Made by a program: the position numbers and the translations under genes
Assembly: GCA_002392285.1 (NCBI GenBank)
Contig: DGGR01000033.1
Span: forward strand, 1-9,746
Source: Verrucomicrobia bacterium UBA3869
GTDB lineage: Bacteria; Verrucomicrobiota; Verrucomicrobiia; Opitutales; UBA9783
DNA: 9,746 bases
Direction: 5' to 3'
The notes under the pieces: generated by a model
Seen by the model: the letters and a program-made list of their open reading frames with translations, nothing else
Told to the model about the DNA's origin: nothing
Database searches by the model: none
Part shown: positions 5,535-6,964 of the stretch, piece by piece
How positions within the stretch are numbered: the first letter of the stretch is position 1
Layout of the letters: each line of letters starts with the position of its first letter

Positions 5535-6647
5535 ATGTGTGCCTATACAGTAATCGCGCGCCGCTGGCGTCCTAAACGGTTTAGCGACCTAGTTGGGCAA
5601 AGTACCATTGTCCAATCCCTTTCTAATGCGATTGAAACCAAACGCATTGCACATGCCTATCTATTTGTCGGCCCACGAGGAACCGGAAAAACCAGTATGG
5701 CCCGCCTATTTGCCATGGCTCTCAATTGCGAAAATGGCCCGCGGATCGATTTCGACCCCGAAAGCGAACGGTGCCAAGCAATCTTCCAAGGACGTTCTTT
5801 GGATGTCATTGAAATCGATGGAGCGTCCAATAATTCGGTAGAACAAATCCGTACGCTACGCGAAGAATGCCAGTATGCTCCTGCAGAAGGACAATATAAA
5901 GTGTACATTTTGGATGAAGTACACATGCTAACGACAGCTGCCTTTAATGCACTCCTAAAAACGCTGGAAGAACCACCCGCACACGTTAAGTTTATTTTTG
6001 CAACCACCGAAGTTCATAAAGTACCATCAACCATTGTTTCGCGTTGCCAACATTTTGAATTTTTCCCCTTAGAGCCTGAGCTCATTGAACAACGGTTACA
6101 GTTGATTGTAAAAACAGAACAGCTGCAGGCGGAACCACAAGCGCTTCACATGATTGCGTTGTTGTCAGACGGAGGGATGCGTGACGCCCAATCCATGTTG
6201 GATCAACTGTTAACCTTTTCAGAAGGTAAACTAACAGCACAGGCGGTTCAAAGTATGTATGGGCTGCTTCCTCAAGAAGCCTTAACCACCTTAGGTCAAT
6301 CCATCGAACACAGTGATTATGCCCACGTGCTACAGATTGTTGAACAAATTGCGCAAAAAGGGTGCGATGTATACCGTGCGTTGATCGATTTGGAACGTTA
6401 TTTCCATGAGCAATTCCTGAAGGCCATTAAAGATCCTCAAACAACCCCCTATGTGCCTTTGGTTTATGCAAAAATTTTAGAAGTTTTAAAGTCAGGAGAA
6501 ACGCAAGTACAACAAGGCTTATCCGTACGCAGCAATTTAGAAGCAATCTTATTTCGAGCAATCGAATGTACGAAAATGGCGGCCTTAGAAACTTTATTAA
6601 AAGCCTTTAATGCTGCTCCGGCAGATGTAAAAAAAAACGATTGTTAG
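5535..6647 (+). CDS. dnaX: DNA polymerase III subunit gamma/tau, zero-frame product (domains I-III, gamma-like, ~370 aa)
   Basis: RWRPKRFSDLVGQ, Walker A GPRGTGKTS, Walker B ILDEVHML, ATTE sensor 1, SRC motif VSRCQHF. The ORF track starts at GTG 5532; the ATG at 5535 fits the DnaX N-terminus better. The ORF stops 3 codons after an A9 run. Confidence 0.93.
   Translation: MCAYTVIARRWRPKRFSDLVGQSTIVQSLSNAIETKRIAHAYLFVGPRGTGKTSMARLFAMALNCENGPRIDFDPESERCQAIFQGRSLDVIEIDGASNNSVEQIRTLREECQYAPAEGQYKVYILDEVHMLTTAAFNALLKTLEEPPAHVKFIFATTEVHKVPSTIVSRCQHFEFFPLEPELIEQRLQLIVKTEQLQAEPQALHMIALLSDGGMRDAQSMLDQLLTFSEGKLTAQAVQSMYGLLPQEALTTLGQSIEHSDYAHVLQIVEQIAQKGCDVYRALIDLERYFHEQFLKAIKDPQTTPYVPLVYAKILEVLKSGETQVQQGLSVRSNLEAILFRAIECTKMAALETLLKAFNAAPADVKKNDC
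6629..6637 (+). promoter_or_regulatory. A9 homopolymer: candidate recoding site in dnaX (transcriptional slippage or -1 frameshift)
   Basis: Nine consecutive A residues, phased as GT[A AAA AAA AA]C in the zero frame. This gives in-phase slippery heptamers A_AAA_AAA and A_AAA_AAC. The zero frame terminates at 6645-6647, while the -1 frame is open from 6611 to 6964. Confidence 0.5.
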
Positions 6648-6964
6648 CTCTCATCAAGCAGGTTCAGGTACTGATTAACGAGCACGCCGCTCGAAAAACC
6701 TTAATACCTTCGATTCCTGTAACCGTCCGTGAAACGCCCAGTCCCCAGGATGATGCTCAATCAACAAAATCGCTTGCACCAATGCAAACCATCCAACCCA
6801 TGCACACAATACCATCGAGTGCTGAACCGATAACCACCTCGACAGTTCCGGACTTCCAAAGTTCGGTTGCCGCTATCCCTGATAGTGTTAAAGATGCGTT
6901 TAAAACCCTACTTCGAGGCGAAATTAATGGGGTTTGGCCAATTGACCCTAAAGGCTTACGTTAA
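6638..6964 (+). CDS. dnaX: Probable C-terminal extension of DnaX (tau-specific region) in the -1 frame relative to dnaX
   Basis: The ORF-track 6641..6964 protein has only a TTG pseudo-start and no RBS, and it overlaps the dnaX stop. Its frame is exactly -1 to dnaX and is open back through the A9 run. The sequence is a P/S/T/Q-rich linker followed by a short structured end, like the tau linker and C-terminal domain. The joined product would be about 476 aa. Confidence 0.6.
   Translation, partial: RLLALIKQVQVLINEHAARKTLIPSIPVTVRETPSPQDDAQSTKSLAPMQTIQPMHTIPSSAEPITTSTVPDFQSSVAAIPDSVKDAFKTLLRGEINGVWPIDPKGLR

Follow-up and report, generated by a model that had tools for sequence, protein, structure and literature searches.

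A reversed two-ORF dnaX in an Opitutales bacterium, probably recoded by transcriptional slippage on an A9 run

The analysis of a 9,746-nt stretch of DNA (contig DGGR01000033.1 of assembly GCA_002392285.1; 44% GC), hereafter the window, reveals a dnaX gene that is divided between two reading frames at a run of nine A residues. Programmed recoding at this run through transcriptional slippage is probably the best explanation of the layout. Under this mechanism, unslipped transcription followed by translation would give a 370-aa gamma-like clamp-loader subunit consisting of domains I-III and the tail NDC. RNA polymerase would slip on the A9/T9 tract in a sizeable fraction of transcripts, adding one non-templated A (A10, or A10+3n) that would join the first open reading frame (ORF1) to the -1 frame. 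The slipped transcripts would then be translated in the usual way into a tau-like protein of ~476 aa (...ADVKKKRLLALIK...GVWPIDPKGLR), and transcripts of other run lengths would lead to gamma-like products. Both gamma- and tau-length products would be made in such a cell.

The identity of ORF1 was established by domain matches and by comparison with database proteins. It matches the Pfam families DNA_pol3_delta2 (PF13177), DNAX_ATPase_lid (PF22608) and DNA_pol3_gamma3 (PF12169), and it exceeds the cutoffs of two NCBIfam equivalogs (TIGR02397, 414 bits, cutoff 250; PRK05563, 421 bits, cutoff 400), which upholds the assignment to DnaX domains I-III made in a preliminary description of this DNA. 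The protein contains an AAA+ module with Walker A (GPRGTGKT) and the SRC motif, an ATPase lid and the domain III collar, and the database protein P0001, with a length of 370 aa, is 99% identical to it. The start had earlier been placed at GTG 5532, which gives 371 aa; we correct it to ATG 5535, the likely start codon, which gives 370 aa in line with a database cluster of that length. The zero frame at the junction reads GCA GAT GTA AAA AAA AAC GAT TGT TAG, and the reported termination of dnaX at 6645-6647, three codons after nine A's at 6629-6637, can thus be read directly from the sequence (Table 1).

Table 1. Features of the dnaX region, in window coordinates
Feature	Position	Strand	Remark
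dnaX ORF1, zero frame	5535..6647	+	gamma-like product, DnaX domains I-III, ends ...ADVKKNDC, stop
A9 slippery run, recoding site (putative)	6629..6637	+	read in sequence; same-site run conserved in relatives
Zero-frame TAG stop	6645..6647	+	ends gamma-like product three codons past run
TAA in -1 frame	6608..6610	+	upstream limit; shift possible within 6611-6644
-1 frame segment, predicted tau-specific C-terminus	6629..6964	+	starts KKKRLL; stop TAA 6962-6964

Translation confirms that in the -1 frame no stop occurs between 6611 and the TAA at 6962-6964; this frame reads KKKRLLALIKQVQ...GVWPIDPKGLR and encodes KKKRLLALIKQVQVLINE...IPDSVKDAFKTLLRGEINGVWPIDPKGLR. Three parts can be distinguished in the segment from 6629 on: a helix that spans the junction, a linker of ~50 aa that is disordered, and a conserved C-terminal motif (IPDSVKDAFKTLLRGEINGVWPI). 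The fused window protein and the 511-aa relative P0002 are 66% identical (alignment A1) and are colinear at the junction, with ...PEDVKKKRLLTVL... in P0002 and ...PADVKKKRLLALI... in the window. Moreover, the pattern (I/L)P-x3-[KR]-x6-L-x-G-x3-GVWPI is common to the -1 peptide and full-length verrucomicrobial DnaX, the pattern (I/L)P-x3-[KR]-x2-[LF]-x3-[LF]-[RK]-x3-[FV]-x-V-x2-[IV] is shared by the fused window protein and single-ORF DnaX of Verrucomicrobiota, and the C-terminal motif of the window recurs in DnaX proteins of 476-511 aa (alignments A1 and A3). In an AlphaFold2 (AF2) model of the fused 477-aa protein, domains I-III have a pLDDT of ~90, a helix (residues 364-389) spans the junction, the disordered linker (388-436) has low pLDDT, and two short helices (442-461, pLDDT ~85) lie in the motif. 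The colinear alignment, the common motif and the AF2 model together indicate that the downstream ORF is the tau-specific C-terminus of this lineage, and the match between the -1 peptide and the DnaX C-termini of relatives, proposed earlier as a check, is found in both the junction alignment and the motif. The expectation of an unshifted short form (~370 aa) and a recoded long form (~476 aa) is likewise borne out, as regards the anatomy and the homology of both halves.

The 111-aa -1 peptide matched no Pfam family at E<=1, including tau domains IV and V, and a profile of the C-terminal motif searched against PDB sequences returned chance matches alone (E>1). Given the lack of a match in the PDB profile search, we infer the equivalence of the window C-terminus to domains IV and V of E. 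coli tau. The C-terminal motif of ~35 aa putatively contacts Pol III alpha and/or DnaB.

Elsewhere in the window, an ORF of 153 aa at 4984-5445 on the plus strand matches the CesT family of type III secretion chaperones (PF05932, E=1.9e-14), and a 358-aa ORF with no Pfam match (3894-4970, plus strand) stands directly 5' of it. The composition of positions 4001-5000 is unusual (AT skew 0.24, GC skew 0.16), and the stretch 3894-5445 may hold a chaperone/effector pair in an Opitutales genome. A further ORF of 390 aa, downstream of fabF at 8574-9746 on the plus strand, has no Pfam match at E<=1e-5.

The A9 run is the longest homopolymer of the window, and it is of the kind (at least nine A or T) that is a feature of Thermus-type slippage. 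Dinucleotide shuffles contained a mean of 1.0 A9 run per window, with at least one run in 93 of 200 shuffles; the run alone is within chance expectation for the window, and its position and conservation are the non-random part. Two slippery heptamers are in phase within the run, A_AAA_AAA (6629-6635) and A_AAA_AAC (6632-6638), as had been described, while the A_AAA_AAG of E. coli-type -1 frameshifting is absent from the window and present in phase in relatives with A10 (e.g., L082 and L005). The 20 nt 5' of the run (AATGCTGCTCCGGCAGATGT) contain no GGAGG-like stretch that could act as an upstream Shine-Dalgarno (SD)-like stimulator. Downstream of the run no significant hairpin was found in the window (fold z = -1.1 and +0.25), the first paired base of the fold with z = -1.1 lying 21 nt past the run, and the earlier statement that an SD-like element and a well-placed hairpin are both lacking agrees with the 5' sequence and these z values. 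An Rfam scan of the window produced no family reaching its gathering score.

The conservation of the split was then assessed across relatives, of which the nearest by protein are metagenome-assembled genomes (MAGs) of Opitutae, Opitutales and Puniceicoccales. In the cluster at >=90% identity (19 members), 15 of the 15 members listed are 370 aa long, their sources being many independent ENA, Logan and NCBI assemblies, and among the best 120 protein matches 91 are short (<=430 aa), 87 of these 91 ending within a few residues after KK[K/N]. Loci were collected by scanning genome and metagenome contigs with the peptide patterns YILDEVHM and [ED]GGMRDAQ, one of them generic; among the matches listed, the scans gave at least five and at least three near-clade loci, the metagenome also yielding at least ~70 more distant split loci. 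Among the matches listed, the run lies shortly before the zero-frame stop in 83 loci (33 with A9, 49 with A10, one with A13), a set that includes the window, nine loci of the near clade, the complete Coraliomargarita algicola genome and ~70 metagenomic loci. In the related loci too, the zero-frame stop comes within a few codons of the run, and the median length across the 83 loci listed is 118 codons for the -1 ORF as against 3 for the +1 ORF. The site in C. algicola (CP138858, L082) reads GAA AAA AAA AAG CCC TAG. Strong conservation of the -1 translations extends from the run (KKK-[GRAD]-L-[ILT]...) to the C-terminal LPP[ML][ED][DE]LVxRIPxxxRxxL[DE]ELFRA[KR]F.

Individual loci show variation around this pattern. 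The A13 of L138 (1221-1233) equals A10 plus one whole codon, which leaves the frame relation unchanged. In L131 (2044-2053), A10 stands in a different phase and the conserved tau-type ORF (90 codons) is in the +1 frame, not the -1; it is the sole +1 case among the 83 loci listed and may be a sequencing error or a real requirement for -1A/+2A. Many A10-type loci (L090, L093, L100 and others) have a conserved CTGATTGA just 3' of the run, which reads L-I-[DE] in the tau frame and places TGA stops in the zero and +1 frames within three codons past the run. Since both other frames are closed by TGA, transcripts without the right A count would terminate at once.

An error of homopolymer length in the assembly, with a true A10 and one uninterrupted dnaX, was the trivial alternative raised in the preliminary description. 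It draws on the fact that one base separates A9 from A10 and that a close relative (L081, the source of P0002) has A10 and a single 511-aa ORF. The frame break is, however, repeated in the 370-aa members of the 19-member cluster, which come from independent assemblies, in the nine near-clade loci, in one complete genome and in ~70 further loci, and the layout itself has been published. Conservation across dozens of independent assemblies rules the error out for practical purposes, and we assign it only the slightest probability. The A-run and frame break, whose presence in orthologues had been proposed as a check, are found in the 83 loci listed, and the cluster members and short proteins agree with them in length or ending, which indicates that the dnaX split is genuine.

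The junction also bears on whether the two ORFs could be expressed as a truly split gene, with ORF2 translated through independent initiation at TTG 6641 or through coupling, or could be a decaying pseudogene in which ORF2 is unexpressed and the gamma-like protein alone is functional. The TTG at 6641 in the ORF listing and the separate 118-aa ORF called in C. algicola speak for this reading. The TTG, directly 3' of the run, is the sole mechanical start in the downstream ORF (the first ATG follows ~140 nt later), and no SD-like sequence precedes it, consistent with the earlier claim that this ORF lacks a credible start or ribosome-binding site. At the protein level, the -1 frame is conserved from within the run onward (KKK-R/G-L-L/I...) and aligns colinearly with the in-frame relatives. 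In L002, where TAG TAA overlap the beginning of the run, stops close the -1 ORF as far as the run, and the shift must therefore happen inside it in that locus. Independent initiation of ORF2 was rejected on the junction alignment, the L002 stops and the conservation from the run onward. Decay is excluded because more than 70 loci show that purifying selection clearly acts on the C-terminal motif. For the polymerase to be tethered in the Pol III holoenzyme, tau has to belong covalently to the clamp loader. Taken together, a split gene or pseudogene is very improbable.

The comparison with relatives that carry the run in frame reveals a second arrangement. L081 and L163-L166 (P0085, P0029, P0090, P0120) have A10 in frame at the homologous site (dnaX codons ~365-376; L081:1688-1697), and both other frames stop 0-7 codons downstream. 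L081 is 94.6% identical in DNA to L084, which has A9 and is split, and a single A in the run sets it apart from both L084 and L001, also split. These loci indicate that in-frame (Thermus-like) and split layouts coexist in Verrucomicrobiota. Among the best 120 matches, 11 of the 29 long forms are without any lysine run. Five full-length proteins of 476-477 aa (P0033, P0056, P0086, P0101, P0109) have no lysine run at the junction, where they read ...LPKEGVDERRGE...; this lineage presumably makes tau only, or gamma by another route.

Such a distribution raises the idea that the lysine-run site exists in two states across Verrucomicrobiota, either in frame (A10, tau templated) or out of frame (A9, or A10 in another phase, gamma templated), and that slippage near 50% lets run length drift almost neutrally between the layouts, a proposal for and against which we see the chances as evenly balanced. 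If it is true, the phylum constitutes a natural experiment on how recoding efficiency sets gene architecture. Such an effect has been foreseen in general terms, without documentation inside one clade, in the review of Atkins et al. 2016 (PMC5009743).

The choice between transcriptional slippage and a ribosomal mechanism depends on the run and its flanks. Loci with an uninterrupted run have a median GC content of 65%, and in 73 GC-rich loci, which are not phylogenetically independent, so that the number of independent observations in this codon-usage argument is overstated, AAA encodes 23% of the lysines and GAA 29% of the glutamates in the rest of the gene, while the run is never interrupted. 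In the A9 type, moreover, the codon that leads into the run invariably ends in A, even as the residue that it encodes changes (TCA, GTA, ATA, CTA, TTA). These patterns suggest that a run length greater than the 7-nt heptamer is under selection. Downstream RNA structure was considered as a general stimulator and rejected: the fold is not significant in the window, 80 loci were marginally below controls (mean z -0.50 vs -0.13; minimum z -3.75), and no conserved downstream hairpin was found across relatives, the flanks not being conserved among near relatives.

The ribosomal alternative is -1 programmed ribosomal frameshifting (PRF), in which the mRNA would stay A9 and tandem tRNA-Lys/tRNA-Asn would slip back by one base on A_AAA_AAA / A_AAA_AAC, giving tau and gamma from one message. 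Several observations count toward it and against slippage: an in-phase -1 heptamer occurs in the window and in every one of the 83 loci listed, the canonical E. coli A_AAA_AAG is present in 49 loci (the A10 type), 82 of the 83 loci listed (all save L131) have tau in the -1 frame, and some loci have strong downstream folds. For Antonov et al. 2013 (PMC3711429), one criterion that pointed to PRF and not transcriptional slippage was a single shift direction, and a Chlorobium candidate with E. coli-like stimulators is mentioned in the Atkins 2016 review (PMC5009743). On the other side, the window has neither an upstream SD-like element nor a significant well-placed hairpin, relatives have no general downstream structure, and in E. 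coli A_AAA_AAA and A_AAA_AAC shift far less readily than A_AAA_AAG (PMC5009743). PRF would also leave unexplained why 9-10 A's are kept where 6-7 would be enough, against strong GC codon bias, and why A10 is kept by in-frame relatives as well. We therefore consider PRF unlikely, and the two processes may act together.

Transcriptional slippage is favored over a ribosomal -1 shift because the run is longer than a heptamer needs to be and is uninterrupted despite GC codon bias, because the in-frame relatives keep the run, whose sole plausible use there would be to make gamma by slippage, and because neither an SD-like element nor a conserved downstream hairpin is seen. The preference for slippage voiced in the preliminary description is strengthened by these comparative data, and slippage is still a mechanism that we infer.

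These results have practical consequences for annotation. In the complete genome of C. algicola (L082:3643-3999), the gene calls consist of a 380-aa dnaX protein and a separate 118-aa ORF without a Pfam match, and no recoding is indicated, so that the recoding annotation gap seems to persist in these records. The dnaX of Opitutales and many other Verrucomicrobiota, present in current records as a truncated "gamma/tau" gene and a hypothetical ORF, should be annotated as a single recoded gene for gamma and tau. Here an essential replication protein would reach its full length only through a slip of the ribosome or a base that is not templated. The additions beyond the 17 published genomes are modest, namely 83 split loci listed, two layouts in one phylum and an A-run kept at a median of 65% GC. 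The concept of the reversed dnaX is unchanged by the present data, and the comparative set indicates good test organisms.

With regard to known systems, E. coli dnaX resembles the window in the gene, the domain III/tau boundary, a slippery site in lysine codons and two products sharing their N-terminus. In E. coli, however, tau is the zero-frame product and gamma arises by a shift on A_AAA_AAG, helped by two stimulators, an SD-like element and a hairpin, that were not found in the window. The window zero frame gives the gamma-like product and the tau C-terminus lies in the -1 frame, and the preliminary description was right to call this the reverse of the E. coli layout.

Thermus thermophilus dnaX reportedly undergoes transcriptional slippage on an A9 run, a finding said to be that of Larsen et al. 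in 2000. The slippage on this A9 amounts to ~50% (PMC1088944). Like the window, Thermus has A9 at the boundary between domain III and the C-terminus, and its mRNAs of mixed run length, of which one frame gives tau and the others stop soon, correspond to what is proposed here. The templated length leads to tau and the slipped length to gamma in Thermus, whereas the window is reversed, its zero frame stopping at 6645-6647; the exact Thermus layout, with tau in the templated frame, is instead that of L081 and L163-L166. Of the two, slippage has been shown experimentally in Thermus alone. Homopolymer slippage that gives a longer functional product from two overlapping ORFs, as in the proposal, is also known from Shigella flexneri mxiE and from genes of Buchnera/Blochmannia rescued at poly(A) tracts, all unrelated to dnaX; the endosymbiont tracts are read as tolerated frameshift mutations, while the dnaX site is ancient, conserved and linked to two useful products.

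The closest counterpart is the reversed layout that Antonov et al. 2013 (NAR 41:6514, PMC3711429) described for 17 dnaX genes from 12 genera, each made up of two neighboring ORFs with a -1 transition between them; it has been restated by Sharma et al. 2014 (PMC4066793) and Atkins et al. 2016 (PMC5009743). Poly-A runs were present in 12 of the 17: nine, that of Coraliomargarita akajimensis among them, are A10, and the other three, from Chlorobi, are A9, A8 and A7. Transcriptional realignment was argued by analogy with Thermus (Antonov et al. 2013, PMC3711429). In the literature searched, no experimental test of the reversed layout was found. As in the window, ORF1 of these genes (GeneTack COF_239165634; Chlorobi, Bacteroidetes, C. 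akajimensis) covers domains I-III, the junction has a poly-A run (A7-A10) with a zero-frame stop directly after it, and tau would be reached by a -1 transition. The window has each element of this arrangement: ORF1 ends just past a poly-A run at the domain III boundary, the second ORF is in the -1 frame and is homologous to the C-terminus of single-ORF DnaX, and both the site and the frame relation are conserved. It differs from Coraliomargarita, a member of the class Opitutae like the window organism, in having A9 followed by C (GTA AAA AAA AAC) vs A10 followed by G, and the organism belongs to an uncultured Opitutales lineage outside the 2013 set. Overall, because the reversed layout has been published with an example from the same bacterial class, the window dnaX is a real and ordinary further case of the recoding class described in 2013, in a slightly different variant.
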